Origin: an uncultured Lachnospiraceae bacterium
Lineage (GTDB): Bacteria > Bacillota > Clostridia > Lachnospirales > Lachnospiraceae
NCBI GenBank assembly: GCA_947628705.1
Contig: CANRAZ010000002.1
Coordinates: forward strand, 1,128-65,127
Length of the DNA stretch: 64,000 nucleotides
Direction of reading: 5' to 3'
Shown here: positions 41,589 to 61,994 of the stretch, in pieces
Layout of the letters: every line of letters begins with the position of its first letter
Numbering within the stretch: position 1 is the first letter of the stretch
Notes under the pieces: generated by a model
Database searches by the model: none
Told to the model about the DNA's origin: nothing
The model's input: the letters and a program-made list of their open reading frames with translations, nothing else
Program-made: the position numbers and the translations under genes

Positions 41589-41648
41589 AGTTTCCGCCTC
41601 CTAAAATTTATTTTGTGTTTCTATAAATTTATGCTTTATATTCAGCAT

Positions 41649-41749: not shown

Positions 41750-41774
41750 TCTATGAAGTTTAAACCCGTAGCCT

Positions 41775-42947: not shown

Positions 42948-43026
42948 TGCTCTAATCCTCCCTTATAATATTTTTAATGCCGCACCGGCGCCGTCGGCAC
43001 GGCCGGTCAAAGCCTCCAACCGTAAA

Positions 43027-44196: not shown

Positions 44197-44304
44197 TTGC
44201 CCACCTCCAAAATGCTGCTGATTGCGTTTTTTAATCAGTCTTTTTTATCATTAAACATTTATATTTTCAGAAAACAGATAAGCCTTCCGCAGCCCTGCGC
44301 CTGT

Positions 44305-45423: not shown

Positions 45424-45462
45424 ACTTCCTCCCTCCGCAATACGCATTTGCAGCATAACCTG

Positions 45463-45471
45463 ATTATAGCA
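45463..45471 (-). promoter_or_regulatory. possible extended -10 promoter for the esterase-to-manA gene string
   Basis: The minus strand reads TGCTATAAT. The -35 (TAGAAT) is weak. Confidence 0.4.
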
Positions 45472-45546
45472 ACTTATAGAAACATATTCTAGTTTTTTAT
45501 CTGCAAAAAATATTACAAATATATTTTTATAAGTATCTATAATTTT

Positions 45547-45576
45547 CAAAAAGGCGGTTTTTACACCGCCTTTTTG
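45547..45576 (-). terminator. strong bidirectional intrinsic terminator after the SBP gene
   Basis: aggcggt/accgcct 7-bp stem (45552-45571) with a 6-nt loop, flanked by A5 and T5. Confidence 0.8.
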
Positions 45577-45597
45577 ATTAACTAAATTATCCAAATA

Positions 45598-47079
45598 TTA
45601 GTTGGACTTGTTGAAGTTCTGATCAAGATAATCCTGAACAAGCTGCTTATTAGCCTGCTGGAACTCAGCTACGGTAATAGGAGTTGCATCAGCGCCTGTT
45701 TCGATGATACCTCTGATCTGATATTCCTCAGCAAAAGTAATCTGCTGCCACAAATCAAATACATAATCACTCTCAGAATCGCCCATGCTCTTAAGAACCT
45801 CAAAGTTCTGCTCATTGTAGCACCACTCTTCAAACCATGTTGTGTTGTCACGGATTGAAAGGTCATCATTGTACCAGTTGAAGTAATCGTACAGTACGCA
45901 GAAGATAAGGGCCGGATTCTCTATTCCTGCAGGAATCATGTAATATGTACCGGTTGTGGAGTTGATATTAGGATTGGTCTCTGCGTTTCCGCTAGGACCC
46001 GTAGGCCATGTAACCATTCCCATGCTGTTGATAAGATTCTGATCCGGGTCAGCTTCCTGTGTAATCCAGCATGCACTGTTCCAGAAGCCGATATTACCGC
46101 TTGCGAAAGCATAAACGTTATCGTTCCAGTCAGCATCGCAGTCAGCATCCCAGAAGGATACGCCGTATGTCTGATACATATCATACAGGAAATTAAGAAC
46201 TTCCGTAGCAGGCTTACTTGTAAGCTGCTCCGTAATCTTTCCTGAACCGTCATCTTTAAGCGAAGCGATTGTAGCGTTATTTGACATGAGGAGCTGAATC
46301 AAAAGGTTGGTCCAAGCGCCTCTGTAGCCCCACATATCATCAGGAGACATTGCACCGTCGCTGTTAGTATCCTGTGTGAGAGTCTGCATTTCTGCAAGCC
46401 AGTTGTCCCAGTTCCACTGTCCGTTAAGGAAATACTCGTAAGGATCGGTAAGGCCGTACTGGCTAATTAAATCCATGTTGTAACCAAGAGCCATACCGCC
46501 AAGGTCGATAGCATTTGCACCGAAAAGATAATGCTTTCCATCAGTAGTAAACTGAATCGTCTTTACGATGTTTGAACCTGCATCCGTAAGAATGTCCTTA
46601 TACTTATCTTCAATCATTCCGTTCTGAGCTTCAGGACTTTCATTGAGGATGTACTCAAGGTCATAAGCATATCCGGCAAGCACAGCCGGAAGACCGAACT
46701 GCATATCTACCATGTAAACATCGCTCTCAGGAGAGCCTGCCATGATAGATGTGTTAATTGACTCAATTACGCCGTTCCATGTAAGGTTGTCGTAATAGAG
46801 CTCAATGTTGTACTTCTGCTCAATCGTTCTCATGTTGTTGAGATTCATCTCAGCTTCTGCGATGTTATCAACGTTTGGATTGTCGTTAATATCGTCGTGA
46901 GCGGAAGTGTAGTAGGATTCATACCAGGTTCCGATGTAGATTGCTCTTGTTTCTTCCTGGTACAGCTTTGATTTTGTTACTTCATTGTTTGGATTCTCCT
47001 CTTTTTTGCCGCAAGCAACAATTCCGAGCGCCATCACAGCAACAAGAAGTACGGCTACAGTTTTCTTAAAATAGCTCAT
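45598..47079 (-). CDS. LplA-like extracellular solute-binding lipoprotein (sugar ABC importer)
   Basis: Lipobox LGIVACGK. 493 aa, rich in W/Y/N/D as is typical of oligosaccharide SBPs. RBS AAGGAGG. Confidence 0.85.
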   Translation of the reverse strand: MSYFKKTVAVLLVAVMALGIVACGKKEENPNNEVTKSKLYQEETRAIYIGTWYESYYTSAHDDINDNPNVDNIAEAEMNLNNMRTIEQKYNIELYYDNLTWNGVIESINTSIMAGSPESDVYMVDMQFGLPAVLAGYAYDLEYILNESPEAQNGMIEDKYKDILTDAGSNIVKTIQFTTDGKHYLFGANAIDLGGMALGYNMDLISQYGLTDPYEYFLNGQWNWDNWLAEMQTLTQDTNSDGAMSPDDMWGYRGAWTNLLIQLLMSNNATIASLKDDGSGKITEQLTSKPATEVLNFLYDMYQTYGVSFWDADCDADWNDNVYAFASGNIGFWNSACWITQEADPDQNLINSMGMVTWPTGPSGNAETNPNINSTTGTYYMIPAGIENPALIFCVLYDYFNWYNDDLSIRDNTTWFEEWCYNEQNFEVLKSMGDSESDYVFDLWQQITFAEEYQIRGIIETGADATPITVAEFQQANKQLVQDYLDQNFNKSN

Positions 47080-47114: not shown

Positions 47115-48506
47115 TTACTGGTTTGTTGCTTTTCCGACCGTTACAGCATCAATTTTAAGAAGAAGACCTCTGTCAGCAACACCGCAGAAATCAGCAAACT
47201 TGAAGATTTGATTAACATCCATTCCATCTTCTGCAAAAATGCCTGCGTTTACGGTTGCACAATCTGTAAAGAACTCATACGGATACTGAACAATTGTGTA
47301 AGAATCATTAATCATTACTGTTTCAGCAGGAGTATTGTCTTCATCGAGACCGACAGCAGCGCCGGCGCCATTGTCATAATAGAAAGCGCGTGAAGCGTCA
47401 GTTGTCATTCCATCCTTCCAGTCAGTCCATGAAACATCAAGGATTGTACCCGAAGGCCATTCAGGATCATCAACTTTGGAGCCGTCCTCAAGCGTGGTCT
47501 GCCAGTTCTGGATTCTGAAGTAAGGGAAGCACTGGAACTGCTTATCTGTTGTTGTAACGTCAATTTCAGGGTCAGCAACTCTGTAATAAATTGTAATTAC
47601 GTCTCCAGGTCCGAAGGTGAAGTCCTTAATATAATTTCCGTTACCAGTATTAGCTTCGTCGAATACAAAAGAGTTAGCGGCTTCAGGCCACCAACTGGTA
47701 CCGGTATTAGCGCCTGCATAAAGAAGCACTTCATTTTCAGGCTGGCTTGTTGCATTAGACCAGTCATACTCTCCTACGCCTTCTACAGCAAACTCAACAC
47801 CGGAATTAAGCGGAAGCGCGCTGCCCGATGCGTCATAACAAATGATGTTATCAAGGTAAACAAGCGTAGGCGTGCTTGACGAATCATCAAGATCAATGAT
47901 CGTAAGGTAATTTGTGGCAGCCGGATCGATTCCGTTTGTTCCTAAATCAATCTCAACCGTCTTCATTGCTGCGGTAGCCTTGTAAATTGCGAAAGTGCTC
48001 TTGCACTCTGTGTTTGCTTCGCCGGCATAAACTACAGCGCTTCCTGATACGGCATTAAACACCCCGTTAGTAGGGTCAACACCGATATCAACGGAAACCT
48101 TAGCACATTTAGAAGCATTGTCGCCGAGCAATGAAGCAAGGTCAACTGCAACTGCCGGATTTCCTGCAGACGTTCTGTTCACGCAGAGCGCTTTTCCGTC
48201 AAGCTTATCAGCAACGGAAAGAGTAGCTCCTTTAGAACCCGACCAGTCAGCTTCATTATACTTTGCAAAAGCGTAATTGCCGTCTTCAAAGTTTACGATG
48301 CTGCCTGCATCAACGCCGCTGTGATCCTTTATGCCGCTTGCTGCTTCTTCTTTTTCTTTTTCATTATGGTTCGGAGCCGGAGCTTTTGTAGCAGTTCCTG
48401 CCGATGCGCCTTTATCAGGATCAGTATTTCCTTTATCGCCGCATGCAACCAACGAACAAAGCATTGCAGACACAAGACCCGCTGCAATCAATTTCTTTCT
48501 AAACAT
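47115..48506 (-). CDS. surface lipoprotein of unknown function (463 aa)
   Basis: Lipobox CSLVACGD, then a low-complexity linker, then a sequence rich in beta-strand-like segments. RBS AGGAGGA. I recognise no motif. Confidence 0.8.
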   Translation of the reverse strand: MFRKKLIAAGLVSAMLCSLVACGDKGNTDPDKGASAGTATKAPAPNHNEKEKEEAASGIKDHSGVDAGSIVNFEDGNYAFAKYNEADWSGSKGATLSVADKLDGKALCVNRTSAGNPAVAVDLASLLGDNASKCAKVSVDIGVDPTNGVFNAVSGSAVVYAGEANTECKSTFAIYKATAAMKTVEIDLGTNGIDPAATNYLTIIDLDDSSSTPTLVYLDNIICYDASGSALPLNSGVEFAVEGVGEYDWSNATSQPENEVLLYAGANTGTSWWPEAANSFVFDEANTGNGNYIKDFTFGPGDVITIYYRVADPEIDVTTTDKQFQCFPYFRIQNWQTTLEDGSKVDDPEWPSGTILDVSWTDWKDGMTTDASRAFYYDNGAGAAVGLDEDNTPAETVMINDSYTIVQYPYEFFTDCATVNAGIFAEDGMDVNQIFKFADFCGVADRGLLLKIDAVTVGKATNQ

Positions 48507-48565: not shown

Positions 48566-48594
48566 ATTATATATTAAAACTTCAAAATAATCAA
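48566..48594 (-). promoter_or_regulatory. putative promoter for the lipoprotein-SBP genes
   Basis: Minus strand: TTGATT (48594-48589), 17-nt spacer, TATAAT (48571-48566). Confidence 0.55.
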
Positions 48595-48713: not shown

Positions 48714-48742
48714 CAAAAAGAGCGGGAAAGCCTTTACGCTCC
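48714..48742 (-). terminator. weak terminator-like hairpin after the LplC-like permease gene
   Basis: gagcg/cgctc stem (48720-48741), followed by T5 on the minus strand. Confidence 0.35.
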
Positions 48743-48773
48743 TCCGCCCTTTTTATTTTAAATTTAATGTCGT

Positions 48774-49760
48774 TTATCCTACAATACCGCTTCGTTCAAC
48801 GCCTTCAACAAAGTATTTCTGAAGTACGGCATAAATCAGAAGCACCGGAACGAGGTCAAGCACTACGGCTGCATAAAGGTACAGCTGTGTAATCGTCGGC
48901 GAGTTTATGTCATAAATCGCCGCAACCTGTTCATAAACCGTCGAAATTTTCATCGACATCCATGAGGATATGTTAAACAGCTTTGTGAAGAAGTAATCGT
49001 TATACTGCCATACGAGCGAGAAAACCGCAACCGTAATAACGGAAGGCATCGCATTTACAAGCATTATCCTGAAATATGTGTAATAAGCCCCTGCGCCGTC
49101 AACAAACGCCGCTTCTTCAATTTCCTTAGGCAGGCCTCTGAAGAACTGGTTGAACAGGTAAATGTAAATACCCGAATTCAGTCCGCAGCCTAAGAATGTA
49201 AGCAAATACAGCGGGCTCATCGTCTTCATAAGGTTTATCGGACCGCCTTTTACAAGAGAAACAATTCCGAATACGTCAAACTCCTTAAACTCAATGTAAA
49301 GAGGAAGCATAATTACATGAAGCGGAATAACAATCATTATTACAACACATGCAAAAAGCACCTTTTTGAGCGGGAAGTTGAACCTTGCGAATCCGTAGCC
49401 GACCATTGAGCAGATAAGTATCTGCAGTCCCATCAGCACAACATCGTGGAGCAGCGTCGTCGCAAGCACGCCCCAGTATTTAATCGTTTTGATTACCGCA
49501 CTGTACTTTTCAAGCGTCGGACGCTTAGGAATGATGTAGACCATCGGATCCGTCGCATCCGTATCTGCGAACAGCGAATTTGAAACGACTTCTATAATCG
49601 GGCTAAGAATAACATAGGATATTCCTACCAGAACACACAGTCTGAAAAGGGCAAAGATAAGATTTTTTGCGGATTTCAGCATTCTTCTTCTTTCATTTGA
49701 AATCTGCTGGTCGCTTTTAAGAAGCTCAGCCGATTCGTTTTTATGCCTAAAATATTTCAT
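48774..49760 (-). CDS. carbohydrate ABC transporter permease (LplC/MalG-like)
   Basis: 328 aa with 6 predicted TM segments. The EAA-type loop is EIEEAAFVDGAGAYYTYFRIMLVNAMP. Confidence 0.88.
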   Translation of the reverse strand: MKYFRHKNESAELLKSDQQISNERRRMLKSAKNLIFALFRLCVLVGISYVILSPIIEVVSNSLFADTDATDPMVYIIPKRPTLEKYSAVIKTIKYWGVLATTLLHDVVLMGLQILICSMVGYGFARFNFPLKKVLFACVVIMIVIPLHVIMLPLYIEFKEFDVFGIVSLVKGGPINLMKTMSPLYLLTFLGCGLNSGIYIYLFNQFFRGLPKEIEEAAFVDGAGAYYTYFRIMLVNAMPSVITVAVFSLVWQYNDYFFTKLFNISSWMSMKISTVYEQVAAIYDINSPTITQLYLYAAVVLDLVPVLLIYAVLQKYFVEGVERSGIVG

Positions 49761-49776
49761 CTTTTTTACCCCCTTC

Positions 49777-50691
49777 CTAGTTATAGTAGAATGTGTGCTT
49801 TTGTATCCAAGCTACTACAATGAACAGTATCAGACAGACGACAACCATGCTGGTCAGCGCCATTGCGCTTCCGTAGTCATACGAATTCGATGAAAAAATC
49901 ATATCGTAAGAATACTGAACGATTTCACTGGAAGCAAACGCGTCAACGACCGTGTACACAAGGCAGGTTATTATGTGAGGCATAACCATCGGGAAGGTAA
50001 CCTTCCAGAAGGTTTCATAGCTTGTCGCACCTTCAATTTTCGCAACCTCATAAAGCGAGGAAGGAATCGACTGAAGGGCGGCTATGAATATGACTATCTG
50101 TACGCCTGCAAGATCCACGACCTCTGCGATTCGGTCGACAGCCCCGACGACGTAATCGATTATCGAGGAGGGCAATCCAATATCCTTGAATAGCGCAACA
50201 TAGTAATCAAGATTGACCGTAGATGCGGAGGACTCGGTTATTGCAGCGGAGGTAGAGCTTATACCTCCGACTGCCGCCTGTCTTGCCTGTGCAATTGCGT
50301 CTGAAATCGCATCGCAGCCCATTATTACAGGAATAAAGAAAATCGCCCTGAAAATTGTTCTTCCGATAAACTTTTGGTTAAGAAGCATTGCCATCAAAAG
50401 CGCAAACGTCAGTACCAGAGGCACATCAATGACGATATCCCTGAGAGATGTTACCAGAATCTTGTTAAATTTGCCGTCTTCCAGAAGGATGTACTTGAAG
50501 TTTCTCAGTCCGGCAAACGCTGCGCTGTAACCGGATTTCGGATCAACGCTTACATTTGAAAGAGAGAACTGAATGGTCATAAACAAGCTTTTAATGTAGT
50601 ATACACAAAAGCCAACCAGCCACGGCATAATGAATAAGTAGCCTGTTATGGCTCTTCTGCGAGCCAGCGTCATCTTCTTTTTCTTCTTCAT
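49777..50691 (-). CDS. carbohydrate ABC transporter permease (LplB/MalF-like)
   Basis: 304 aa. EAA-type loop YEVAKIEGATSYETFWKVTFPMVMP. The ATG overlaps the upstream stop (TAATG). Confidence 0.88.
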   Translation of the reverse strand: MKKKKKMTLARRRAITGYLFIMPWLVGFCVYYIKSLFMTIQFSLSNVSVDPKSGYSAAFAGLRNFKYILLEDGKFNKILVTSLRDIVIDVPLVLTFALLMAMLLNQKFIGRTIFRAIFFIPVIMGCDAISDAIAQARQAAVGGISSTSAAITESSASTVNLDYYVALFKDIGLPSSIIDYVVGAVDRIAEVVDLAGVQIVIFIAALQSIPSSLYEVAKIEGATSYETFWKVTFPMVMPHIITCLVYTVVDAFASSEIVQYSYDMIFSSNSYDYGSAMALTSMVVVCLILFIVVAWIQKHTFYYN

Positions 50692-53600
50692 TATTCAGCC
50701 ACCTCCACAACGTAATTCTTCGGTGAAACGGATGTGTTACCGAGACTGAAGCTTTCGTCAGAGTAGTTTACCACTATTACAACACCGTTACTGTAAGTAA
50801 TCCTCCTTACTTCATTCGCGTCATCCAGTACCTCATGATTTACAATCTTGGCATCTGAAACCAGTGACAGCGTTTCGTTAACCTGATTGTAAATATCAAC
50901 CGCCTCGTCAACCCAGTTTACATAATTTGTAGCATACATATCGTTGAGAGCCGTATATTTCATTTCAGTAGCAGGCACATAGGTAAATGTGAAATGAGGG
51001 CTTGCGCCGTATTCAATACACTCAAGAATGTTTTCAACCGTCGTCGTATCCGCACTGAGGTTAATCGGGCTTCCTGAATAATCAACATAACCGTGAACAA
51101 CCATTTCGTAGAACGGTACTCCGCAGTCCACATAGATATAGTTGTTATCTCCTATCGGAGCATTGATTATATCGTCACAGTACCCGATTGCATATGCAAG
51201 CGGAGCGTTTAACATCACCGAACCGTTTGCGTCTGCAGCCTTCTTAAGCTGAGCAAGAGTAATTTCCTTTGCGCGCTCTCTGTGAAGAATTGAGGTCTTC
51301 TTCATATCGGAGTAAAGGTAAGTTCCAAGGTCACGGTAAGAGGTTCCCGAAACGCCTATGTCCTCCATTTCCTCTATCGCGCTGTCAACATATCTTGACA
51401 TGTACTTAGGCGAAAGCACATCGTAAAGATTTGAAACGTAACCGAGAGAAGCCCCGTTCGAATACGTCGTCGGACTTGTTTTTCCGAAGCCGGCAACATA
51501 GCCTGCTCCGAAGATTCTTGAGGATTCAAGGGTGTAAGGGAAGTCGGTAGCCGAATAGGTTACACGGTTGATTGCCATATCGCCGTAAACCTTGCCGCCC
51601 TTGCTTTCAACCAGGTCAGTAAACTCAGACAGTCCCTTCTTTCCGCCAAGCTTACGGATTACTTTAATATCGCTGACGGTATCGTGATAATAGCCGTCAT
51701 TCATCCAGCCCTGGTAGTTAACAACAAGATTATTGACATTATTCTTATAAAATGCGTCAACAATTTCCTTTGCCTGTTCAAAGGTCGTAAGAGGAATAAC
51801 CGTTTCATAGGCAAATCCAAGGAAATCTCCGTCTCCGTATACTGCGCCAAGAAGGTCCATGTACATCTTGATGCTGCCTGCCTGAAGCGTTTCGGATTTT
51901 TTAAGCATACCGTTGGCTTCAAGATAATCCCTGTAATACGACGCCATACCCGAATAACCCTGGTGTTCACCGTCAAGGAAGCAGTACTGCTGCGTTATCT
52001 GAGTGTCAAAGATGTCGTCTGTCCAGACGGTAAAAGAGTCCGTCGTAGACATGGATATCGTATTCTCGCCTCGGACATAGTATCTGCAATATGCCGTATT
52101 GTAATTTGCAAGCGAATTTGATATCTTGCATGTCTTATCGTTTGCGGTCTGAACCCTAAGCTCTGCAAGCGACTCGCCTCTGGAGAGAATTACAAAAGTT
52201 GTTTTCTTACCGTCATAGCAGCCGTATACAGGCAGCTTTGAATCAACCGTATTCTGAACTTTGGTTTCCGTATCGAACAATACGTCGTCACGGCCGTAAA
52301 TCAACTCGCTGTAGCCGGCAAGAGAATCCGTGTTAGGACTGTTTAACGAAATCAAAGAACCCGATGCGTTAGGAACGAGATAATAGCCTTCGGCAGGGAC
52401 TTTTTCATGCCTGATGACGAACTTTAAGGTTTTGTCAATCGGTTCAGACGAGCTGCTTCCTGAAATCGAAAGTATATAGTCGTTTTCCGGCACAAGTGAA
52501 AGCTTATTGCTTCCACCCATTGAGTTCCATGTTCCGACAACGGCTCCCTGAGCCTCTTTACCGTTTTCATCTACAGCAGTTTCATAAACCGTGAAGCTTG
52601 CGAAATCGTACTCGCCTGCTATAGCATTGTCAACCGTCACATCCGCCTTCTCACCGTCAAATTCAACGGTAAAGAAATCGGACATTTCCTCAACGGCTCC
52701 TGCTGCGGTTGCTTTTTCGTCAACAGTATAAATATAACCTGCATAATTTTCCGTTTCGCAGCTGTGATATGTTGCATCAAAATAAGGAAGCACATCCATG
52801 TAGATAAGACTTCCGGAACCGGTTTCCTCAATATGGTCCGTGCAGATGTTTACCTGAAGCTTACCGTCAACAAGAGTATACTCTAAAGGAATGGTAAAGC
52901 TTGTCGGCAAATCAACCTCTGCTCCTGAGCCTTCCATTTCACGGACAAAATCGTCTTCCGTCCAGCCTATGGATTCAAGAGCTTTCTGCATGTTCTTTAA
53001 CTGTCCTTTTCTAACGCCGGCGCTGATTTGAACGTAACCGTCAACGTCGCTGCCTTTTTCGCTGTATCGGTTTTCAACCATTTCACGGTACCTTGTTTTA
53101 TTCTCGGCATCATACTCGCCAAGCTTTTCTACAACTTCCTTAAATGTGTCAACCGACATATAAATCGGGACCGTGCCCGTTTCCGACGACATATCGCCTA
53201 TCGTATACTTAACACGGATTCCGTTTTCAATTGATTCAACGCTAAACTGCTTTTCGGCAGTTCCTTCCTCATCCTCTTCTTTATTGGCGTTTATGTTCAC
53301 GCAATACTGATATGAATTCATTTCAGATATTGATGAAGCGCTCAGATTCGGATAATAGTAAAGAACAAGCTGTGACATCATCCTGTTGAGATAAATAGGG
53401 TTGTCATAGTCTTCTTCCTGAAGGTTCTGCGGATTTGAGTAAACGAGCCTTGAGGTCGTTTTGTCATATACTGCGACCTGAGTAGTCGTCTGGTCGTAGT
53501 ACAGCTTAAGTCCGTCCGATTCGGCTGCAAGGACATACTGCTCTGCAAGTCCTTCCGGCCTGTCATTATCAGGAAGCGCCTTGAATTCCTTACCCTCTGC

Positions 53601-53756
53601 GTATGTTATAGGAGCATAATCATCCTTATAATCATCATAGAAAGTATATCTTATAAGGTAATATGCAAGATAGGACAACCCGATTCCAAGGGCTACCACC
53701 AAGCAGGAGGCAATAATTTTAAAGCCGACTGTTTTTTTCTTTTTAATCTTCTTCAT
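50691..53756 (-). CDS. N-terminally membrane-anchored extracytoplasmic protein of unknown function (1021 aa; possibly DUF5696-like)
   Basis: Starts MKKIKKKKTVGFKIIASCLVVALGIGLSYLAYYLI (anchor). RBS GGAGGAGG. I recognise no catalytic motif. The family name is from memory of similar gene contexts. Confidence 0.8.
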   Translation of the reverse strand: MKKIKKKKTVGFKIIASCLVVALGIGLSYLAYYLIRYTFYDDYKDDYAPITYAEGKEFKALPDNDRPEGLAEQYVLAAESDGLKLYYDQTTTQVAVYDKTTSRLVYSNPQNLQEEDYDNPIYLNRMMSQLVLYYYPNLSASSISEMNSYQYCVNINANKEEDEEGTAEKQFSVESIENGIRVKYTIGDMSSETGTVPIYMSVDTFKEVVEKLGEYDAENKTRYREMVENRYSEKGSDVDGYVQISAGVRKGQLKNMQKALESIGWTEDDFVREMEGSGAEVDLPTSFTIPLEYTLVDGKLQVNICTDHIEETGSGSLIYMDVLPYFDATYHSCETENYAGYIYTVDEKATAAGAVEEMSDFFTVEFDGEKADVTVDNAIAGEYDFASFTVYETAVDENGKEAQGAVVGTWNSMGGSNKLSLVPENDYILSISGSSSSEPIDKTLKFVIRHEKVPAEGYYLVPNASGSLISLNSPNTDSLAGYSELIYGRDDVLFDTETKVQNTVDSKLPVYGCYDGKKTTFVILSRGESLAELRVQTANDKTCKISNSLANYNTAYCRYYVRGENTISMSTTDSFTVWTDDIFDTQITQQYCFLDGEHQGYSGMASYYRDYLEANGMLKKSETLQAGSIKMYMDLLGAVYGDGDFLGFAYETVIPLTTFEQAKEIVDAFYKNNVNNLVVNYQGWMNDGYYHDTVSDIKVIRKLGGKKGLSEFTDLVESKGGKVYGDMAINRVTYSATDFPYTLESSRIFGAGYVAGFGKTSPTTYSNGASLGYVSNLYDVLSPKYMSRYVDSAIEEMEDIGVSGTSYRDLGTYLYSDMKKTSILHRERAKEITLAQLKKAADANGSVMLNAPLAYAIGYCDDIINAPIGDNNYIYVDCGVPFYEMVVHGYVDYSGSPINLSADTTTVENILECIEYGASPHFTFTYVPATEMKYTALNDMYATNYVNWVDEAVDIYNQVNETLSLVSDAKIVNHEVLDDANEVRRITYSNGVVIVVNYSDESFSLGNTSVSPKNYVVEVAE

Positions 53757-53767
53757 TTTACCTCCTC

Positions 53768-54397
53768 CTACCTGAAATACAGTTCAAGGTATACACTCTG
53801 GAAGAATGTTATTACCTGTCCGACTAAGCTGTAAACCATCATTATTACGAAAAGAATTACAAGCAGCGCAAAGAACGTCAGCAAAATCGTAATAAGCGTT
53901 TTGCCAAGCGTGTAGTTGTGTATAATCATTATTCCGATAAGCATTATGATTATAGAATAGGCTACCGAAAGCCAGATTATAATGTTGTAGAACACTTCCT
54001 CGTTCTGAGCAACGAACTGTGAAACAATCGTTGCAGGGATAAAGCAAAGCACGCAAGGCGTCATGGAATATCCCATGATGGTCATTATGTCTTTAAGCCT
54101 GCCCTCTCCGTTCAACAGACAGGTAACAGACCAATTGGCAATCGACAAAAGAAGGAAAAGCAGCAGAACGCCTTCAATTTCCATTAGCGTGTCAACGCTT
54201 CTCGGATCGGTATCGTTCACGATGAAACTGGCGCAAAGCCTGTTAATGGTGTAAGAAATACCGAAAAGAAGAATCATCACCCATGCAATGGCAACGCTGC
54301 CCCTTTCTCTGTGTCTTACTTCATAAAAACCGTCTGAAGGATGAGAGACACAGTAAAATACATATTTCCATTTTTCAGCAGAAAATAAATCTTTCAT
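53768..54397 (-). CDS. Yip1-like five-TM membrane protein
   Basis: 209 aa. N-terminal HPSDGFYEV segment followed by five hydrophobic helices. RBS GGGGAGG. Confidence 0.75.
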   Translation of the reverse strand: MKDLFSAEKWKYVFYCVSHPSDGFYEVRHRERGSVAIAWVMILLFGISYTINRLCASFIVNDTDPRSVDTLMEIEGVLLLFLLLSIANWSVTCLLNGEGRLKDIMTIMGYSMTPCVLCFIPATIVSQFVAQNEEVFYNIIIWLSVAYSIIIMLIGIMIIHNYTLGKTLITILLTFFALLVILFVIMMVYSLVGQVITFFQSVYLELYFR

Positions 54398-54412
54398 TTC
54401 ATGTCCTCCCCT

Positions 54413-55909
54413 TTAATCATCATCATATTTTCTGTTCTTCACCTTCTTGTAAAACCTGAATCCAAGAATTCCGACAAGTAATACAAGTATAGTTCCGAAA
54501 ATCCAGTTGAAGTTATCCTTAAGCAATTCATTTCTGAACCGCTTATACGCTATCGAATAATAGGAGCGGCTCATTCCGAGACTAAGGTAATCCATTGCGG
54601 TCTTATAATCGCCGCTGTTGAGATAAGCCTTTCCTATACCGATATACGCCTGTTCAAAATTCTCATTAAGAACAAGTACCTCGGACCACTTTTCCACCGC
54701 CTGCGATTCGTCCCCGTCATAACGGCAGGCAACCGCCTCGTTAATAAGCCTTCCGTATTCAGTAGGCGAGAAGATGTAAACTTCATTTCTGTTAATATCG
54801 CATACAAGCCTCTGGCTGCCGTTCGCCTCTATTGACCTTGGAGATGAAAACGTTCCGTCCTGAGCTCCCATTCCGCCGTAAATGTAGAGGAGGTTCCCTT
54901 CAGAGTCATATGTGAAAATACGTCCTCTCAGATTGTCAAGAATGGAATACATTCCTTCTCCGCAATAAACCACATCCTGAATTTTATTGGTACCGCAGTA
55001 AAGGTTTATTGCTGCGCCCGTTCCGACAATATCGCCTCCGACATTTTCATTGGCGCCCTTTCTGATAACGTCTCCGCCCTTTGAATTCAGCCTCATGACA
55101 GCCTGCATACCGGTCGTATCAAGATAGCTTGCATAGAGGAATCCGTCATCGTCAATGTCGATTCCCGTATATTCTGTAGGAACATACATTGAACCCTTTG
55201 AACGCTGTGCCTGAGTGGATATGGTTTTCCAAAACTTATCCCAAAGACTTATATTTACATTGATTGTACCGAAGTAACCGTTAAAGGTTCCGTCTCTCTC
55301 AAGCTGGAGAATTCCCTGAAACTCGTTGAGGTTGATAATGTAGATTCTTTCGGCGGAGTCTACGCACACCTTAAGCGGTTCAAACGCATAGTTTTCAGGA
55401 AGAATATCCGATTTAATCATTGACGATTCAAGATGACCGGCATAGACAAAATCCTTATCCTGTTTTTCAAAGTACAGCAGCCTGTGGTTTCCTGTATCGC
55501 AAACATAAAGGTAACCGCTGTCTGAAAAATAAACACCCTGAGGATTAAGGAGCGTATCCGTAGAACCCGTCTCCGAATTATAGAACTCGTCAATTACGGT
55601 AATAAGAGAATAATCCTTACCGTCTACAACCACTATGCAGTTATTTGTGTAATCGCACAAATATATCGTTTTGTCTTCAGGACTAACAAATATATCGTAG
55701 ATCGCACCGAGAGGGGCGTCAAGACCAAGCGAATCGCCTGTTATGCTTCCGTCAGGGACATATGCCGCTGGGGTATAAACCACGTCCTCCCAGTAATCAA
55801 AGTTATATGTTACATACGGCAGAGTGTCCGCCAATGCAGTCTGCACCATAACTGAAAGAACCAGAACTACGACTATGAATTTAGATATAAGATTGCTTTT
55901 TGAATTCAT
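54413..55909 (-). CDS. secreted NHL-repeat beta-propeller protein with TPR-like segment and C-terminal TM anchor
   Basis: Has a signal peptide. Repeated blades follow D-x-x-N-x-R/x-[ILV]-x-x-[FY] (YVCDTGNHRLLYF, LCDYTNNCIVVVD, VCDINRNEVYIF). Also AYIGIGKAYLNSGDYKTAMDYL, and the C-terminal WIFGTILVLLVGILGFRFYKK. Confidence 0.8.
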   Translation of the reverse strand: MNSKSNLISKFIVVVLVLSVMVQTALADTLPYVTYNFDYWEDVVYTPAAYVPDGSITGDSLGLDAPLGAIYDIFVSPEDKTIYLCDYTNNCIVVVDGKDYSLITVIDEFYNSETGSTDTLLNPQGVYFSDSGYLYVCDTGNHRLLYFEKQDKDFVYAGHLESSMIKSDILPENYAFEPLKVCVDSAERIYIINLNEFQGILQLERDGTFNGYFGTINVNISLWDKFWKTISTQAQRSKGSMYVPTEYTGIDIDDDGFLYASYLDTTGMQAVMRLNSKGGDVIRKGANENVGGDIVGTGAAINLYCGTNKIQDVVYCGEGMYSILDNLRGRIFTYDSEGNLLYIYGGMGAQDGTFSSPRSIEANGSQRLVCDINRNEVYIFSPTEYGRLINEAVACRYDGDESQAVEKWSEVLVLNENFEQAYIGIGKAYLNSGDYKTAMDYLSLGMSRSYYSIAYKRFRNELLKDNFNWIFGTILVLLVGILGFRFYKKVKNRKYDDD

Positions 55910-55919
55910 ACCACGCCTC

Positions 55920-56816
55920 CTATTCTTTCATACCTGACGACGTCATGGTCTCAATAATCTGAGACTGGCAGATCAGGAAGAATGTGATCGGAACAAGTGC
56001 GATAACGAAAGCAACCGCACAGGCAACACCTGCTCTTGCTGCGCCGCCGCCGGCAATCTGCTGGAGTGCGAACTGCATAGGCTTAAGCTTCTCGCTTCGC
56101 AGGAACATGGAACCTGTATTGCCCCACATCTGCTGGAACTGCAGTACCGCAAGCGTCAGCCATGCAGGCTTTACGTTCGGCATGAAGATTTTCCAGAAAA
56201 TCGTGAACTCGGAAGCGCCGTCCAGCTTTGCGGATTCCATCAGAGAATCAGGTATCTGCTCCATGAACTGTTTCATGAGGTACAGACCCATACCGAACTG
56301 CCACGACGGAAGTATGAGCGCCAGGTATGTATTGTTGATCCCTAAATAAGAAATGATCATGTAGTTAGGGATCTGCGTAACGTTGTATGAGAACATCATG
56401 GAGAGCACTACGATGCTGAAAAGGATGTTCTTTCCGGGGAACTTGTGCTTTGCAAGCGGATAAGCCGCAAGAGATGCAACAACAACGTGACCGACCGTAC
56501 CGAAGCCTGTGATGATAAGGGTGTTAAAAATGTACCTTGAGAACGGAACCCACGAATCGCTCATTACGACAAAGAGGTCTTTAAAGTTTTCAAAGGTAGG
56601 ATTCTTAACAAATATCGTCTGAGGATACTGGAAAATTTCATCCAGAGGCTTCAGCGCGTTATTTATAAGAATTACAAGCGGCAGCGCCATGAACACGCCG
56701 CAGAACGCCATGAAGAAGAACAACAGTCCGTTGCCTGCTGCGGAACGGTTAAGCTGTTTTTCTCTGTGGAACCATCTTTTTTTCACACGGGTCTTTTCTT
56801 TAGCCATACTACTCAC
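55920..56816 (-). CDS. carbohydrate ABC transporter permease (MalG-like)
   Basis: EAA-type loop LMESAKLDGASEFTIFWKIFMPNVKP. The start is either GTG at 56816 or ATG at 56807. Both abut the upstream stop at 56809-56811. Confidence 0.88.
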   Translation of the reverse strand: MSSMAKEKTRVKKRWFHREKQLNRSAAGNGLLFFFMAFCGVFMALPLVILINNALKPLDEIFQYPQTIFVKNPTFENFKDLFVVMSDSWVPFSRYIFNTLIITGFGTVGHVVVASLAAYPLAKHKFPGKNILFSIVVLSMMFSYNVTQIPNYMIISYLGINNTYLALILPSWQFGMGLYLMKQFMEQIPDSLMESAKLDGASEFTIFWKIFMPNVKPAWLTLAVLQFQQMWGNTGSMFLRSEKLKPMQFALQQIAGGGAARAGVACAVAFVIALVPITFFLICQSQIIETMTSSGMKE

Positions 56817-57738
56817 CCACCCTTCTCAAGAGTGCCTGAACAAGCTTGTTTGTTCCAACCATGAGCAAGAAGAGAATGGTTGCAATAGCCGAGGCATAAC
56901 CCATTTCAAATCTGAACGTACCGTAGTCAATCAGGTGAGTGACGATCGTCGTACCTGCATAGTTGATCGACGGATTACCTGCAAGCTGTATGGATATATC
57001 ACCGACAGCAAATGACTGCGTAATCTGCATAACGGCGCCGAACATGAGCTGAGGCTTCATTGCAGGAAGCGTGACGTACCAAAGCTCCTGCCAACGGTTT
57101 TTAATTCCGTCCATAGCCGCAGCCTCGTACATCGACCTGTCGATCGTCTGAAGACCTGCTATGAAGGAAAGGAAGCCGGTACCAAGCGACAGCCAGAGCT
57201 GAACGACTATCAGACAAGGCATTACGAGCTTTTCCGTCTGGAACCACAGCACAGCATTGTTTACAAAGCCCCATCTAAGGAGTATTGAGTTCAAGTAACC
57301 GTATCTGTCTGAGCTTAAGATAAGGGACCATACGTAATATGCGTTACCGCAGATAGACGGAGCATAGAATATAAGGGTAAGAAAAGCTCTCATCTTACCG
57401 TGGAATTCATTGATGATCCACGCAAACAGCAGACACATGAGGTAAGATGCCGGTCCTGTTATTACCGCAAAGAGCAATGTGTTCTTCAAAGCGATAAGGA
57501 ATATCTCGTCATCAAGGAAAAGCCTTGCATAGTTATTGAATCCGACCCATGAAGGGAAGCTCAGCATATCAAAGTAGGTAAAGCTGAGCACGATGGACGC
57601 AAGGACCGGCAGCACCGTAAAGAAGAAGAAAAAGAGGAAATACGGAGCAATCATCGCATAAGACGCTCTGCTTCTGTAAATCTTCTGTTTTAATGTCAGC
57701 CTGTGAACTATCGGCTGTGTCTGATTAGCAGAATCCAT
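56809..57738 (-). CDS. carbohydrate ABC transporter permease (MalF-like)
   Basis: EAA-type loop YEAAAMDGIKNRWQELWYVTLPAMKP. The ATG at 57736-57738 follows AGGAGGAAAC. Confidence 0.88.
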   Translation of the reverse strand: MDSANQTQPIVHRLTLKQKIYRSRASYAMIAPYFLFFFFFTVLPVLASIVLSFTYFDMLSFPSWVGFNNYARLFLDDEIFLIALKNTLLFAVITGPASYLMCLLFAWIINEFHGKMRAFLTLIFYAPSICGNAYYVWSLILSSDRYGYLNSILLRWGFVNNAVLWFQTEKLVMPCLIVVQLWLSLGTGFLSFIAGLQTIDRSMYEAAAMDGIKNRWQELWYVTLPAMKPQLMFGAVMQITQSFAVGDISIQLAGNPSINYAGTTIVTHLIDYGTFRFEMGYASAIATILFLLMVGTNKLVQALLRRVGE

Positions 57739-57754
57739 ATTGTTTCCTCCTTTC

Positions 57755-60700
57755 CTATTCAAGTCCAAGCTCTTTGCGCTTGGATGCAATTTCGTCGTCA
57801 ATATAGGTTACACGGTCCATAAGTTCCTCTCTTGGAGTGGAGGAGTCCATATCGGCCGTAACCGCATAATAAGCATTGTTAATGTAACGGAAGGTAAAGT
57901 AGCTGCCTGCAACCTGTCTTATGCCGCGTACATTGTTTCTCTGCTTATTAATCGTGTTTGTGAATGCAACCGGATAACCGATCTGCTGGAAGGCTTCCGT
58001 GTTTGCGGTTGCAACCTTTGCAGATGCGCCGTTGATTGATTCCATCTCATGAGAGTACTGAACCTGCGTATCAGCTTCCGTCCACCACTTGATGAATTCC
58101 CATGCCGCTTCCTTATCTTCACATGCGGACATTATAATGCAGGCATTGCCCACGCTCGCTATCGTGTGGTCAACATAGGTTTCTCCTGCCTTTGCAACAA
58201 GCTCGCCGTCTGAGTTGTAAATGTTTTCCGTCGCTACTCTTTCCGTGCCCGGAACCTGTGTTACGCCCCAGAGACCGTTAATATCAGGCGCCGATACCTG
58301 CAAGGTGTTGTAGTAACCGAAGTTATAAATTATGATTGGAGCCTCGCCTGTACGGAAACGCTGTTCCACGTTGGTCGTTTTATCAACGCCGTAATCCGTG
58401 TACCATTCGCAATACTGCGTGAAGGAGTTGATCGCTTCCTCCGAGTCAAGAAGCGTCTTTGAACCCTCTTCATTGTAGTACTCTCCTCCGTGCTGAAGAA
58501 GATGCATAAGGAATATTTCTTCACCCGGAAGCATTCCAAGATCCATGTTGTTCTGACTCATTACCGTAAGAGCGGTGATCATCTGATCCCATGTTTCAGG
58601 CGGCTCAATGCCAAGCTCCTGAAGAATATCCTTTCTGTAGAACATTACAAGGAATGTCTGCTGACAAGGGAGTGCAAATGTCGAATCGCCATACTGATAT
58701 GCTTCATATGCGCTGTCGTCAAATCTGGCAAGCACCTCATCCAAATCGTCAAAATTGGAGAGATCGTAAACCGCATGACGCAAGCCGTAGTTAACAGGGA
58801 GGTCATAGTTTACCTCAATTGCAACGTCAGGTCCCTGACCTGCCAGAGTCGCCTGAAGAAGCGTGTTAATGTCTACAAGCATTACGGTTACGTTTATGCC
58901 GTACTTGCTCGTAAACTGTTCCGAAATCATCGTCTTGATAACGTTCGACTGGTCACGCCCCGTACCTACCCAAAGAAGGAGCTCTCTATGCTCTGCGTTA
59001 GGGTCGGAAACGTCGCCAACTATATCATAATCAATAATAAACGAATAGAACAACCTCTTTATCTCATGGATAAGCTTCGTCCAAAAGCTGTTCTTAACAT
59101 GCTTGATTTCGCTGTCTGTTGAATGAATGTAAATCGAATCCAGAGCCAGAGGCTGACCGATAACGTCTGCGATCCACGTACCGCAGGCACGAACGTTGGT
59201 TCTGTAATCGGAAACGACCTTTACGAAGTATTCATTGTCTTCAATAAGCTCTCCGAGCTGAGTACGCATTGTAGTAAGCGCACGTTCCTTATCGCTTCCA
59301 GTTCCTACAAGTTCTTCAAACTCCTTAATAATTATATCGAGCTTATCATAAGCAGCCTGAAGCTCTTCCGTAAGTCCCGGCAATGACGCCTTAATCTGGT
59401 AGTCACGCCAAACGTCCGGAGCGATACCTGTAACACAGATAACCTCACGGTAAATCTGGTTAAGGTCATCGGTAACATCTGAAACCTTTCCTACAATGTC
59501 GCCGAACTCGCCGAGCACAACCGACATACGAAGCTTATGGTCTCCCTCTGTCAGATAAATCTTGTAGGCGCCGTCAGAATTTCCAAGCTTTTCGTAATAC
59601 CATGTACTGTCATAAGAGAAGCCGTACTCGTTAAACTCCTCAAAAGGAACCGTACCGTCAATCATTATCTTTCTCGATACATATATACCTTTTACGAAGT
59701 TCTGCTTGCAAAGAAGTTCTATATTGTAATAACCGCTTTTATCAACGTGGAAATCCCACTCAAGCCAGTCTCCTACAAGCCTCCAGCTGTTGCCTCCTAT
59801 CGTATTGTTAAGAAGAAGCTTCGCGCTGTAAGGCCTGACTGCCGCAGAGGACTGATCCTGCTGAGGATAAAGCATCTGAGACGACTTAAGGTCAGCGTTC
59901 TCCGCCTGAATCTCAATTACGCTTCCCGACGAAGAATTTTCAAGCGATGAAGTACTGTTAAGATAATCCTTATAGGAAGGAACAGACGCAACATGCTCAA
60001 ATCTCAGCGAATAAAGAACCATTGACTCAGTGATCGAGAAAAGAGTCACCGTGTTGACGCCCGCCTCAAGATAAACTCCAAGCTCGCCGGTATAGTAGCC
60101 CTGGCTGTCATAAAGATATGTAGACTGCCAATCGTGAACCTCGGTCTGTGAGGTTTTAAGATCGTTGCCCTGATTATCCTTATTCCATTTAATGTTTCCG
60201 TCCTCGTCAAGAACAGGGGAGCCGTCCGCATTTGTTTCGTAGTGGTTCGGATTATTTACCCACATACGTCTGAGCTCGATGTTGGAAAACTCAGCAAACG
60301 GAAGCTCTCCATTTATAAAGATACCTCTTCTGATGTTGGAGTTTTTAGACTGAATATTGTAATAATCAAGCCCGATGTGATAAAACCCGCTTTCAGGAAC
60401 GGTTATCTGGAAATCGACAAAACCCGTTTCATCAATCAAAAGAGATTTTGGATATTCACTGAATGTGCCGTAAGGATTACTGTCTCCGTAAACCTCTCTG
60501 GGCAGAGAAGATGTATCCACCACCTCAGGAGCCTTACCCTCATAATGATTGGCAGCAAGATAAGCGTCATATGCCGAAACCTGGAAGCTGGAAGCTGCGG
60601 CCTTTCCGCCGTACTTCTCCAGATATTCAGTATATGTAAGCGTACTGTCATCAATATTGTAGTAATCAAGAATATACTGATAGTAATCCGTTGTACACGT

Positions 60701-60907
60701 TGAAGGATCAACAGGCCCTGCCGTATCGGAGCCATCGCCTGCTTCTGGCACATCTGCATCCGAAGCGTCGCCGCCGGCAGCATCTTCCGTCTGGGTTCCG
60801 TCCGCCGCATCAGCGTCCGCAGGAGCAGACAATGCAAAAGACTGAAAAACCATTGTCAGAATCAAGGCAAAAACGATTATACGTTTTAATAAAACCTTTG
60901 CGTGCAT
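57755..60907 (-). CDS. about 1050-aa extracellular protein: two CBM6/35-like modules, a coiled coil and a family-1 solute-binding domain
   Basis: The ATG at 60905-60907 follows AAGGAGG. Has a signal or anchor but no lipobox Cys. Duplicated segments are SGFYHIGLDYYN..RRGIFINGELPF and SGYYNIELLCKQ..SRKIMIDGTVPF. The C-terminal half (LLLWVGTGRDQSNV...DVAIEVN...) looks like an SBP. Confidence 0.82.
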   Translation of the reverse strand: MHAKVLLKRIIVFALILTMVFQSFALSAPADADAADGTQTEDAAGGDASDADVPEAGDGSDTAGPVDPSTCTTDYYQYILDYYNIDDSTLTYTEYLEKYGGKAAASSFQVSAYDAYLAANHYEGKAPEVVDTSSLPREVYGDSNPYGTFSEYPKSLLIDETGFVDFQITVPESGFYHIGLDYYNIQSKNSNIRRGIFINGELPFAEFSNIELRRMWVNNPNHYETNADGSPVLDEDGNIKWNKDNQGNDLKTSQTEVHDWQSTYLYDSQGYYTGELGVYLEAGVNTVTLFSITESMVLYSLRFEHVASVPSYKDYLNSTSSLENSSSGSVIEIQAENADLKSSQMLYPQQDQSSAAVRPYSAKLLLNNTIGGNSWRLVGDWLEWDFHVDKSGYYNIELLCKQNFVKGIYVSRKIMIDGTVPFEEFNEYGFSYDSTWYYEKLGNSDGAYKIYLTEGDHKLRMSVVLGEFGDIVGKVSDVTDDLNQIYREVICVTGIAPDVWRDYQIKASLPGLTEELQAAYDKLDIIIKEFEELVGTGSDKERALTTMRTQLGELIEDNEYFVKVVSDYRTNVRACGTWIADVIGQPLALDSIYIHSTDSEIKHVKNSFWTKLIHEIKRLFYSFIIDYDIVGDVSDPNAEHRELLLWVGTGRDQSNVIKTMISEQFTSKYGINVTVMLVDINTLLQATLAGQGPDVAIEVNYDLPVNYGLRHAVYDLSNFDDLDEVLARFDDSAYEAYQYGDSTFALPCQQTFLVMFYRKDILQELGIEPPETWDQMITALTVMSQNNMDLGMLPGEEIFLMHLLQHGGEYYNEEGSKTLLDSEEAINSFTQYCEWYTDYGVDKTTNVEQRFRTGEAPIIIYNFGYYNTLQVSAPDINGLWGVTQVPGTERVATENIYNSDGELVAKAGETYVDHTIASVGNACIIMSACEDKEAAWEFIKWWTEADTQVQYSHEMESINGASAKVATANTEAFQQIGYPVAFTNTINKQRNNVRGIRQVAGSYFTFRYINNAYYAVTADMDSSTPREELMDRVTYIDDEIASKRKELGLE

Positions 60908-60923
60908 ATAAACCTCCTTGTAA

Positions 60924-61559
60924 TTACTCATCATACCAAACCTCCTTACCCGCTTCAGGTTTAGGCATGTATTTTTTAAATACGTTCTCTATAAAATAAG
61001 AAATCCCCATGCATGCCATTCCCGGTACAAAGACCGCGGAAAGCGGAAACAGCAAAACCGCAAAAAACATTGCAGCGGAGACCGCCGCAAGGATCAGCGT
61101 CACGGGCAGATGCTTAAAGGTAAGAAAGGCAGAGAATCGGATAAGCTCTTTTACCGGATAAAGGAATCTTGACAGCGCCGCAAAACAAAAGCAGAGATAT
61201 GCTATGTAAAGTACCAGCAGCACCGCGCACAGACTCATGTTGAGGATAGAGAATACCGTTGCCTTTTTGTACCACACAATAATGTCAAGTATAAGCACAA
61301 GACACAGAACAACGGAAACAACGGAGCTGAGCGCCCCTTTTTTCAAAAGCCTCTTAAAGCATCTGAAAAATTCCCTCACTGTCGAGCTTCTGTCACGTCT
61401 GACCGTTTTTACCATACCATAGTAGAAAGCCGAGGAAGACGCCGCAACGGTCACTATCGGAACTGAACAGAGAAGCCATAGCAGCGTTAGAATTACAATT
61501 CTGCCGCATTTATCCAGAAAAGAAATAAACGGGCCTTCAAGGCTGAAGAACGAATTCAT
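60924..61559 (-). CDS. YesL/DUF624-like integral membrane protein
   Basis: 211 aa. It begins FFSLEGPFISFLDKCGRIVILTLLWLLCSVPIVT..AFYYGMVKTVRRDR, which is typical of YesL-family proteins in sugar ABC loci. Confidence 0.8.
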   Translation of the reverse strand: MNSFFSLEGPFISFLDKCGRIVILTLLWLLCSVPIVTVAASSSAFYYGMVKTVRRDRSSTVREFFRCFKRLLKKGALSSVVSVVLCLVLILDIIVWYKKATVFSILNMSLCAVLLVLYIAYLCFCFAALSRFLYPVKELIRFSAFLTFKHLPVTLILAAVSAAMFFAVLLFPLSAVFVPGMACMGISYFIENVFKKYMPKPEAGKEVWYDE

Positions 61560-61683: not shown

Positions 61684-61712
61684 ATAATATCATATCGCTT
61701 GGTAATATGCAA
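61684..61712 (-). promoter_or_regulatory. putative promoter of the yesL-to-permease operon
   Basis: Minus strand: TTGCAT (61712-61707), 17-nt spacer, TATTAT (61689-61684). Confidence 0.45.
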
Positions 61713-61864: not shown

Positions 61865-61914
61865 AAAAAATAAAAACAGCGGCCACGGACATATTTAAAA
61901 CGTCCTGCCGCTGT
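61865..61914 (-). terminator. Rho-independent terminator after the 482-aa gene
   Basis: acagcggc/gccgctgt outer stem plus ggac/gtcc inner stem (61876-61914). On the minus strand it is followed by TTTTTATTTTTT. Confidence 0.7.
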
Positions 61915-61994
61915 TAAAGGCATATTCGCGGCCATCTTCCATAATTTTTTTTATGGCAATAATTAACCGAAAAATAATTTAAGATTATGCAATA

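Follow-up and report, generated by a model that had tools for sequence, protein, structure and literature searches.

The nine-gene unit and its boundaries

The locus described here lies in a 64,000-nucleotide stretch of contig CANRAZ010000002.1 from an uncultured Lachnospiraceae bacterium, a stretch referred to below as the window. A unit of nine genes (48774-61559), all on the minus strand, encodes two pairs of ATP-binding cassette (ABC) importer permeases (A1/A2 and B1/B2), a giant solute-binding protein (SBP), a DUF624 membrane protein, and a trio of proteins of the NHL/TPR, Yip1, and DUF5696 types. Two lipoprotein genes follow, one of them for a second SBP. Listed in the direction of transcription, with TM standing for transmembrane and ΔG for folding free energy, the features are:

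61870..61915, minus strand: intrinsic terminator of the upstream gene unk482, taken as the 5' boundary of the unit (hairpin and U-run, ΔG -25.4 kcal/mol, z -3.55)
61684..61712, minus strand: candidate promoter, TTGCAT, 17-nt spacer, TG-extended TATTAT (read from the sequence)
60924..61559, minus strand: DUF624/YesL/MusI-like polytopic membrane protein, 211 aa (Pfam)
57755..60907, minus strand: giant SBP, 1050 aa (Pfam and AlphaFold2 (AF2) model)
56809..57738, minus strand: permease A1, MalF/UgpA-like TM domain with EAA loop (Pfam/NCBIfam)
55920..56807, minus strand: permease A2, MalG/UgpE-like TM domain (BPD_transp_1, E 2e-14)
54413..55909, minus strand: NHL β-propeller and TPR ectoprotein, 498 aa (Pfam)
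53768..54397, minus strand: Yip1-family membrane protein with five TM segments, 209 aa (PF04893)
50691..53756, minus strand: DUF5696 protein, 1021 aa (PF18952)
49777..50691, minus strand: permease B1 (BPD_transp_1, E 2e-13)
48774..49760, minus strand: permease B2 (BPD_transp_1, E 2.7e-12)
48714..48750, minus strand: intrinsic terminator closing the nine-gene unit (ΔG -26.2 kcal/mol, z -5.6, then a U-run) UUUUUGUUU
48566..48594, minus strand: promoter-like site for the downstream unit, TTGATT, 17 nt, TATAAT (10/12 consensus match)
47115..48506, minus strand: lipoprotein of unassigned family, 463 aa, lipobox LVAC (signal inspection)
45598..47079, minus strand: second SBP, termed SBP493, a lipoprotein of 493 aa, lipobox IVAC (SBP_bac_1, E 7e-11)

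The genes are closely packed. From the DUF624 gene to permease B2, and taking the best start codons, the junctions measure 16, 16, 1, 10, 15, 11, -1, and 16 nt, and a GGAGG-like Shine-Dalgarno sequence stands ahead of each of the nine genes. The overlapping junction is a TAATG (50689-50693) that joins the DUF5696 stop to the B1 start, and A1 and A2 meet at TAG-t-ATG (56805-56811) across a 1-nt gap. Both had been noted in a preliminary description of this DNA, together with a 267-nt spacer ahead of the lipoprotein gene, and all three are found in the sequence. The same description had counted ten genes in 48774-61559; there are nine, or eleven when the lipoprotein and the second SBP are included. 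Its family calls (DUF624, SBP, four permeases, NHL, Yip1, and an N-terminally anchored 1021-aa protein) are borne out by Pfam and topology. The arrangement of nine tightly coupled genes is confirmed.

A consensus scan of the window for promoters and terminators returns no more sites than are found in shuffled sequence, and the boundaries of the unit therefore rest on the two individually folded hairpins. That located 3' of B2 had been called weak, a term that does not fit its folding energy, z-score, and U-run. The promoter-like element proposed at 61684-61712 is plausible in sequence and is situated downstream of the unk482 terminator, but misses the threshold of the consensus scan.

A conserved core of eight genes

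A genome scan with a 14-sequence DUF5696 alignment finds a relative in at least 559 species-level genomes, from which the best 79 loci were fetched. Gene presence at these close loci was established by tblastn with the window proteins, counting the loci with enough flanking sequence. A core of eight genes (giant SBP, A1, A2, NHL/TPR, Yip1, DUF5696, B1, and B2) is found on one strand at all 62 close loci counted, in identical order at 61 of them. A second sample of 12 loci, chosen for their distance and sharing 22-32% identity in DUF5696, retains the core throughout, Paenibacillus included. The preliminary description had held that its proposal would fall if the trio did not occur with ABC importers in other genomes; both permease pairs and the giant SBP accompany it at 62/62 close and 12/12 distant loci. 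Nor have the three members of the trio been assigned elsewhere, none of these proteins having a characterised function. The association of the eight genes into one module is close to certain.

What is conserved is the gene content rather than the mirror-like layout (SBP and permeases on either side of the trio) pointed out previously. This layout is indeed present in the window, but it is not a conserved trait, since a small SBP lies upstream of the core in Paenibacillus aurantiacus and permease pair B lies upstream in another related locus (L083).

Literature searches found no description of DUF5696 or of the fixed gene set. The combination of two permease pairs, a multi-domain SBP of ~1,000 residues, and the NHL/TPR-Yip1-DUF5696 trio appears to be new. 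Each of its parts has a known family or fold, and the pathway encoded downstream is likewise known. In kind, the module belongs to the ABC-importer-based glycan utilisation systems of Gram-positive bacteria.

Fold and topology of the component proteins

The 1021-aa protein matches PF18952 with an E-value of 1e-159 (533 bits versus a cut-off of 25.6), and this family model matches all 38 aligned homologues. The family is large: with one representative per 50%-identity cluster, it comprises 7,080 sequences at E ≤1e-3 and 4,123 at E ≤1e-30. Its members range from 780 to 1200 aa, with clade-specific inserts. One such insert, an extra β-sandwich at residues ~330-455 (window 52392-52769, minus strand), is found only in the eleven closest homologues (1015-1076 aa) and is absent from family members of ~780-900 aa. 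Like the other topologies given here, that of DUF5696 comes from a simple inspection of hydropathy and signals rather than from a dedicated predictor; the protein is predicted to possess a single N-in TM helix, with ~985 residues outside the cell.

The AF2 model of DUF5696, built from the 38 homologues (pLDDT 85.6, pTM 0.83), displays a predicted body composed of a β-sandwich, a (β/α)8 barrel, and a second β-sandwich, as in glycoside hydrolase (GH) family GH129. A Foldseek comparison of the model with whole PDB chains returns ZgGH129 (E 7e-28, TM-score 0.71) and NagBb (E 1e-24), followed by members of GH101, GH36, and GH31. Independently, the DUF5696 sequence profile matches GH129 PDB chains with E-values of 3e-7 to 1.7e-6, in three collinear stretches covering the N-terminal sandwich, the barrel start, and the C-terminal sandwich. 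The three-domain architecture is thus common to DUF5696, to the α-N-acetylgalactosaminidase NagBb (5wzn), and to the 3,6-anhydro-D-galactosidase ZgGH129 (5opq, 8rzk). DUF5696 differs from these enzymes by a sequence identity of 12%, by its N-terminal membrane anchor, and by its position in a transporter operon at the loci examined. In Pfam scans of the 38 members to E 10, the GH129 model (which we take to be PF11308) gives no match, and no second family is detected either. A single-sequence PDB search returns nothing useful, and the family has no solved structure. With no GH Pfam match and only remote profile matches, DUF5696 is best seen as a distinct family distantly related to GH129, and not as a member of it. 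The statement in the preliminary description that the block holds no recognisable glycoside hydrolase is accordingly true at the Pfam level, but leaves aside the GH129-like fold predicted for this protein.

Residues D817 (95%), D877 (95%), and E915 (97%) are conserved among 187 DUF5696 members, together with R826, N899, and W684; this pattern makes the first three candidate catalytic residues. The 60-residue spacing between D817 and D877 resembles that of D327 and D387 in the GH36 enzyme TmGalA. D809, in an RD motif at the end of predicted strand 4, was considered as a family-wide nucleophile and set aside, being conserved at 55% only. The odds that DUF5696 is catalytic are about even.

The NHL/TPR protein is recognised by its NHL repeats (PF01436, 39.4 bits versus a cut-off of 20), and TPR_1, TPR_2, and TPR_11 score 18-21 bits, below their cut-offs of 27-28. 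Its top PDB sequence matches are TPR designs and TRIM-NHL domains. It harbors a signal peptide, TM helices at residues 7-25 and 469-487, and a basic C-terminal tail, from which it follows that the propeller and the TPR would both be extracellular. The Yip1 protein (PF04893, E 3.6e-16, 60 bits versus 28.6) has five hydrophobic segments. Across 84 homologues, conservation of its N-terminal motif HPxDGFYExR...G (residues 19-33), predicted as cytoplasmic, is 95% or higher, a level that points to a partner in the cytoplasm. BLAST and Pfam identify the NHL/TPR and Yip1 proteins as a single open reading frame (ORF) in three related loci (L083, L086, and L088), and a fourth (L085) lacks a separate Yip1 gene and has an NHL/TPR gene with five additional TM helices. 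These fusions fit the predicted topology and argue for a physical association of the two proteins. A link between a Yip1-family protein and ABC transport exists in Bacillus subtilis, where YknW is a subunit of the YknWXYZ system. The latter differs from the present module in being a MacB/FtsX-type exporter, equipped with a membrane-fusion protein and involved in toxin resistance, and not in SBP-dependent import.

The giant SBP matches PF01547/PF13416 (SBP_bac_1/8, E 2.5e-22) in its C-terminal 40% only, at residues ~657-966 in the 1050-aa numbering (~666-975 in the 1059-aa ORF that uses the alternative start at 60934). Its AF2 model (pLDDT 79) comprises, from the N-terminus:

residues 2-22: helix
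residues 23-63: disordered acidic linker
no limits given: small helical domain
residues 154-304: first β-sandwich
residues 330-464: second β-sandwich
residues 467-583: long helical bundle
residues 587-1046: MalE-type domain

Hydropathy indicates a hydrophobic anchor or signal segment at the N-terminus, and signal inspection finds no lipobox there. Foldseek with the full model returns MalE-type SBPs alone (TM-score 0.7-0.8), without picking up the N-terminal domains. Pfam detects no carbohydrate-binding module (CBM), and a profile of the N-terminal sandwiches finds only CBM6 chains, at a sub-threshold E-value of 0.27 over one 27-residue motif; the sandwiches are therefore CBM-like in shape only. 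The term "CBM-fused", applied previously to this SBP, is not endorsed as a family assignment.

SBP493 is present after B2 at 58/58 close loci and is the probable partner of permease pair B. Between the two, at 52/58 related loci, lies a counterpart of the 463-aa lipoprotein (~30% identity), for which searches return neither a Pfam family nor a relative among PDB sequences. Judging from the distance that separates B2 from the second SBP, this lipoprotein appears to be considerably longer at many loci.

EAA-type coupling loops are readable in all four permease translations. The BPD_transp_1 score of permease A1 (24.9 bits) is just below the cut-off of 26.4, and its NCBIfam permease matches are sub-threshold as well; its identity reaches 68-92% over the 79 close loci and 46-61% in the distant loci. 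Permease B1 stays in its own orthology group at all loci. With a family-1 SBP and paired BPD_transp_1 subunits bearing the EAA loop, the block has the binding-protein and permease make-up of CUT1-like importers. An exporter role for the block was considered and is ruled out, SBPs and EAA-loop permeases being features of importers.

An ORF combining Walker-A and LSGGQ motifs, as expected for a cognate ABC ATPase, is found neither in the block nor in 86 of 87 related loci. MsmX/MsmK-type shared ATPases are encoded elsewhere in their genomes and power several sugar importers. The earlier presumption that the ATPase is supplied in trans is consistent with the absence of such genes at 86/87 loci. 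The only ABC ATPases of the whole window belong to a MacB-type exporter (26803-34868, minus strand) composed of two ABC ATPases, a 948-aa FtsX-type permease, and two HlyD-like proteins, and are unlikely partners of the sugar importers. The sole ABC-ATPase-like ORF near any related module (535-1176 of locus L078, minus strand) is 214 aa long and sits at the locus edge on the opposite strand; it is probably unrelated.

The DUF624 protein matches PF04854 (E 8.6e-13, 48.7 bits versus a cut-off of 24.2) and the NCBIfam model MusI_fam (E 5e-21; its 75 bits fall short of the 160-bit cut-off). By tblastn, the protein has a match at 60 related loci, mostly directly upstream of the giant SBP. MusI is an essential DUF624-type accessory subunit of a CUT1 importer in Corynebacterium glutamicum (PMC13008276). 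The likeness of this MusEFGK2I maltose importer to the present system lies in its CUT1 type and its dependence on an additional polytopic membrane protein (PMC13008276). The Mus importer differs in possessing one permease pair, an ordinary SBP, and its own ATPase, with no NHL, Yip1, or GH-like partners.

Glycan context and interpretation

Glycan-related genes flank the unit on both sides. Downstream of the second SBP is found:

37563..45594, minus strand: catabolic genes for an SGNH esterase, an AGE-family 2-epimerase, a GH130_1, a phosphoglucomutase/phosphomannomutase (PGM/PMM), a GH5 lipoprotein, and a phosphomannose isomerase (PMI) (Pfam)

The GH130 of the window matches the Ruminococcus albus mannosylglucose phosphorylase 5ay9 with an E-value of 1.6e-193. 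Together, GH130_1, the AGE 2-epimerase (PF07221), PMM (PF02878-80), and PMI (PF20511) make up the epimerase/GH130 β-mannan pathway. The GH5 gene (38518-39759, minus strand) encodes a lipoprotein signal, and the nearest solved relatives of its product are GH5_4 broad-specificity endoglucanases/xyloglucanases, not classic mannanases, so that the polymer may be glucomannan or another mixed β-glucan. From these flanking genes, the cargo in this genome would be β-mannan or glucomannan oligosaccharide. Two ORF starts in this cluster are likely too far upstream, an internal ATG being likelier in each case: TTG 38573 of the isomerase (37563-38573, a 56-nt overlap with GH5) and TTG 45594 of the SGNH esterase (44305-45594).

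Upstream of the module, the window encodes a GH31 and the cytoplasmic 482-aa protein unk482 (61995-63443, minus strand), for which no Pfam family and no PDB sequence relative were found. The glycoside hydrolases just outside the block are hence the GH5 lipoprotein, GH130, and GH31. Copies of unk482, 63-85% identical, lie just upstream of the module in six related loci (L001-L005 and L008), and in four of these (L001, L002, L004, and L005) the copy comes directly after the GH31 gene. Unk482 is a candidate uncharacterised intracellular glycan enzyme.

The downstream genes invite comparison with the β-mannan loci of Roseburia intestinalis and Faecalibacterium prausnitzii, which are described as relying on one ordinary ABC transporter (PMC8262883). 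The likeness, which extends to the R. albus pathway, lies in the acetyl esterase, mannobiose 2-epimerase, GH130, phosphomannomutase, and PMI, and in a CUT1 importer devoid of its own ATPase. No NHL, Yip1, or DUF5696 partner is mentioned in the portion consulted (PMC8262883). In contrast, the window adds two permease pairs, the 1050-aa SBP, a second SBP, an extra lipoprotein, DUF624, and the trio.

GH130, AGE, SGNH, and GH5 genes are carried by many related loci. Other copies of the module have different neighbours; in Paenibacillus it is followed by GH26 and GH113, and at further loci its neighbours are:

L084 and L089: GH18 and an acetyltransferase
L085: DHDPS and BNR
L087: NamZ, MupG, GH3, and NagB
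L088: a GH5-like gene

Over the loci, the core thus adjoins pathways of the mannan, GH18, sialic acid, and N-acetylmuramic acid (MurNAc) types. Since the contexts differ between copies, the core looks like a general uptake device coupled to varied catabolic sets.

A role in glycan uptake is very likely. More specifically, we consider the block, with a probability of about 0.6, to be one copy of a widespread and conserved Gram-positive system for capturing, trimming, and importing glycans at the cell surface. The preliminary description had proposed a surface assembly for glycan capture or processing, and this idea gains support from the co-occurrence of the trio with importers, the gene fusions, and the flanking glycan-catabolic genes, the function itself being read from sequence, structural models, and neighbouring genes. 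The "processing" half of the proposal is strengthened by the finding that the 1021-aa protein is a GH129-like putative glycosidase.

The data bear directly on gene content, coupling, conservation, fusions, topology signals, fold homology, and genomic contexts; DUF5696 catalysis, the scaffold role, complex formation, the pairing of SBPs with permeases, and the substrate belong to the scheme that we infer. A surface endo-enzyme would cut the polymer, probably the GH5 lipoprotein in this genome and GH26/GH113 in Paenibacillus. The giant SBP and the lipoprotein SBP would then capture oligosaccharides, the giant tethered SBP serving pair A and the lipoprotein SBP serving pair B. DUF5696, as a membrane-anchored ectoglycosidase, may trim or debranch these oligosaccharides beside the membrane. 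The NHL/TPR-Yip1 pair would form a membrane scaffold keeping the ectoproteins at the transporters. Two CUT1-type importers would bring in two classes of products, possibly aided by DUF624/MusI-like subunits, and both would be powered by a shared MsmX/MsmK-type ATPase encoded elsewhere. A β-mannan or glucomannan cargo would be finished in the cytoplasm by the esterase, the 2-epimerase, the GH130 phosphorylase, PMM, and PMI.

Several points weigh against this reading. The close loci are the best 79 of at least 559 matches and are biased toward relatives of the window. The 38 DUF5696 members, scanned to E 10, give no significant GH Pfam match. The catalytic half of the barrel has no sequence alignment to GH129, which leaves catalytic equivalence putative. 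Only the mannan-type clade, to which the window belongs, retains the RD809 motif located where the predicted strand 4 of the barrel ends. The nearest folds (GH129, GH101, GH36, and GH31) are those of retaining α-glycosidases, and the flanking pathways mostly handle β-linked glycans. On the side of the transporters, the CBM assignment of the SBP N-terminus is weak (E 0.27), and in several distant modules a second SBP is not seen within reach, so that it may be mistaken to give each of two independent importers an SBP of its own.

Some of these features also fit the main rival explanation, in which the module is the same and DUF5696 is a non-catalytic pseudo-glycosidase, anchored in the membrane, that binds glycan or docks SBPs at the permeases, cleavage being left to other enzymes such as the GH5 lipoprotein, GH26, and GH113. 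The RD809 motif, at the canonical strand-4 position, is lost in every sampled distant homologue from P0024 onward, and sequence likeness to GH129 is confined to both sandwiches and the barrel start. One DUF5696 family accompanies chemically different glycan pathways, and its α-specific nearest folds stand beside β-linked flanking substrates. However, the conservation of D817, D877, and E915 at 95-97% over 187 members, with R826, N899, and W684, is typical of a preserved active site, and we regard a wholly non-catalytic DUF5696 as possible but rather unlikely.

Less likely still is that the trio takes no part in the transport chemistry and serves as an assembly, stability, or signalling device, for example a sensor of extracellular glycan for nearby regulators or a chaperone of the giant SBP. 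Several modules are immediately preceded by regulatory genes, either for a histidine kinase with an AraC-type response regulator or for a LacI regulator; NHL propellers are the extracellular sensor domains of PknD (PDB 1rwi, among the matches of the NHL/TPR protein), and the cytoplasmic Yip1 motif is strongly conserved. Nevertheless, an adjacent regulator is absent from the window and from most close loci, the trio genes are embedded between permease genes, through overlapping or 10-16-nt junctions, rather than beside regulators, and the GH-like fold of DUF5696 would be left unexplained, all of which makes this explanation improbable. Finally, the chance proximity of two ordinary ABC sugar importers and three unrelated membrane-protein genes, imaginable in that the SBP_bac_1, BPD_transp_1, NHL, and Yip1 families also occur elsewhere on their own, is excluded by the synteny data (same content and order at 61/62 loci, same content at 12/12 distant loci down to 22% identity), and is further contradicted by the NHL/TPR-Yip1 gene fusions and the translational coupling between genes.

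The surface system for glycan capture, trimming, and import may also be imagined in a more ambitious form. The eight core proteins would assemble as one membrane supercomplex, the equivalent in monoderms of a Sus-like machine, which could be reused for many glycans. In it, NHL/TPR-Yip1 would physically bridge the two importers, and the DUF5696 ectoenzyme would double as a binding protein and pass its products directly to pair B. Such a dual role of DUF5696 would explain modules having two permease pairs and a single SBP within reach. The formation of a supercomplex is plausible; the complete proposal, with all these parts, is speculative and rather unlikely. The Sus-like systems of Bacteroidota seem similar in that surface binders and a surface enzyme are encoded with the transporter and act at it, and in the variety of the glycan pathways served. 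They differ by the lack of any homology, and by the use of a TonB-dependent outer-membrane transporter with SusD, as compared to cytoplasmic-membrane ABC importers in monoderms.

Among the main degraders of fibre in guts, rumens, and soils are the Lachnospiraceae, the Oscillospiraceae, and Paenibacillus. Compared with the Sus systems of Bacteroidota, far less is understood of how monoderms retain polysaccharide fragments at the cell surface, trim them, and take them up. The module provides a concrete handle on this process, with eight to eleven genes that are strictly conserved, abundant, and joined to different pathways. Were the proposed surface system correct, DUF5696 would become a candidate new glycoside hydrolase family related to GH129, and bacterial Yip1 and extracellular NHL/TPR proteins would gain a first functional context. 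The gene set would also serve as a marker by which glycan-uptake loci could be annotated in genomes and metagenomes of Bacillota, and the hypothesis would be directly testable in genetically tractable carriers such as Paenibacillus.

Elsewhere in the window, an ORF of 3715 aa (3956-15103, minus strand) harbors seven FctA/Spy0128 isopeptide domains, DUF7601, DUF5979, and a collagen-binding domain, a composition suggestive of a giant surface protein of the pilin or adhesin kind. The ORF is flanked by housekeeping genes, with pyrH, frr, uppS, and cdsA on one side and tsf, rpsB, and codY on the other.

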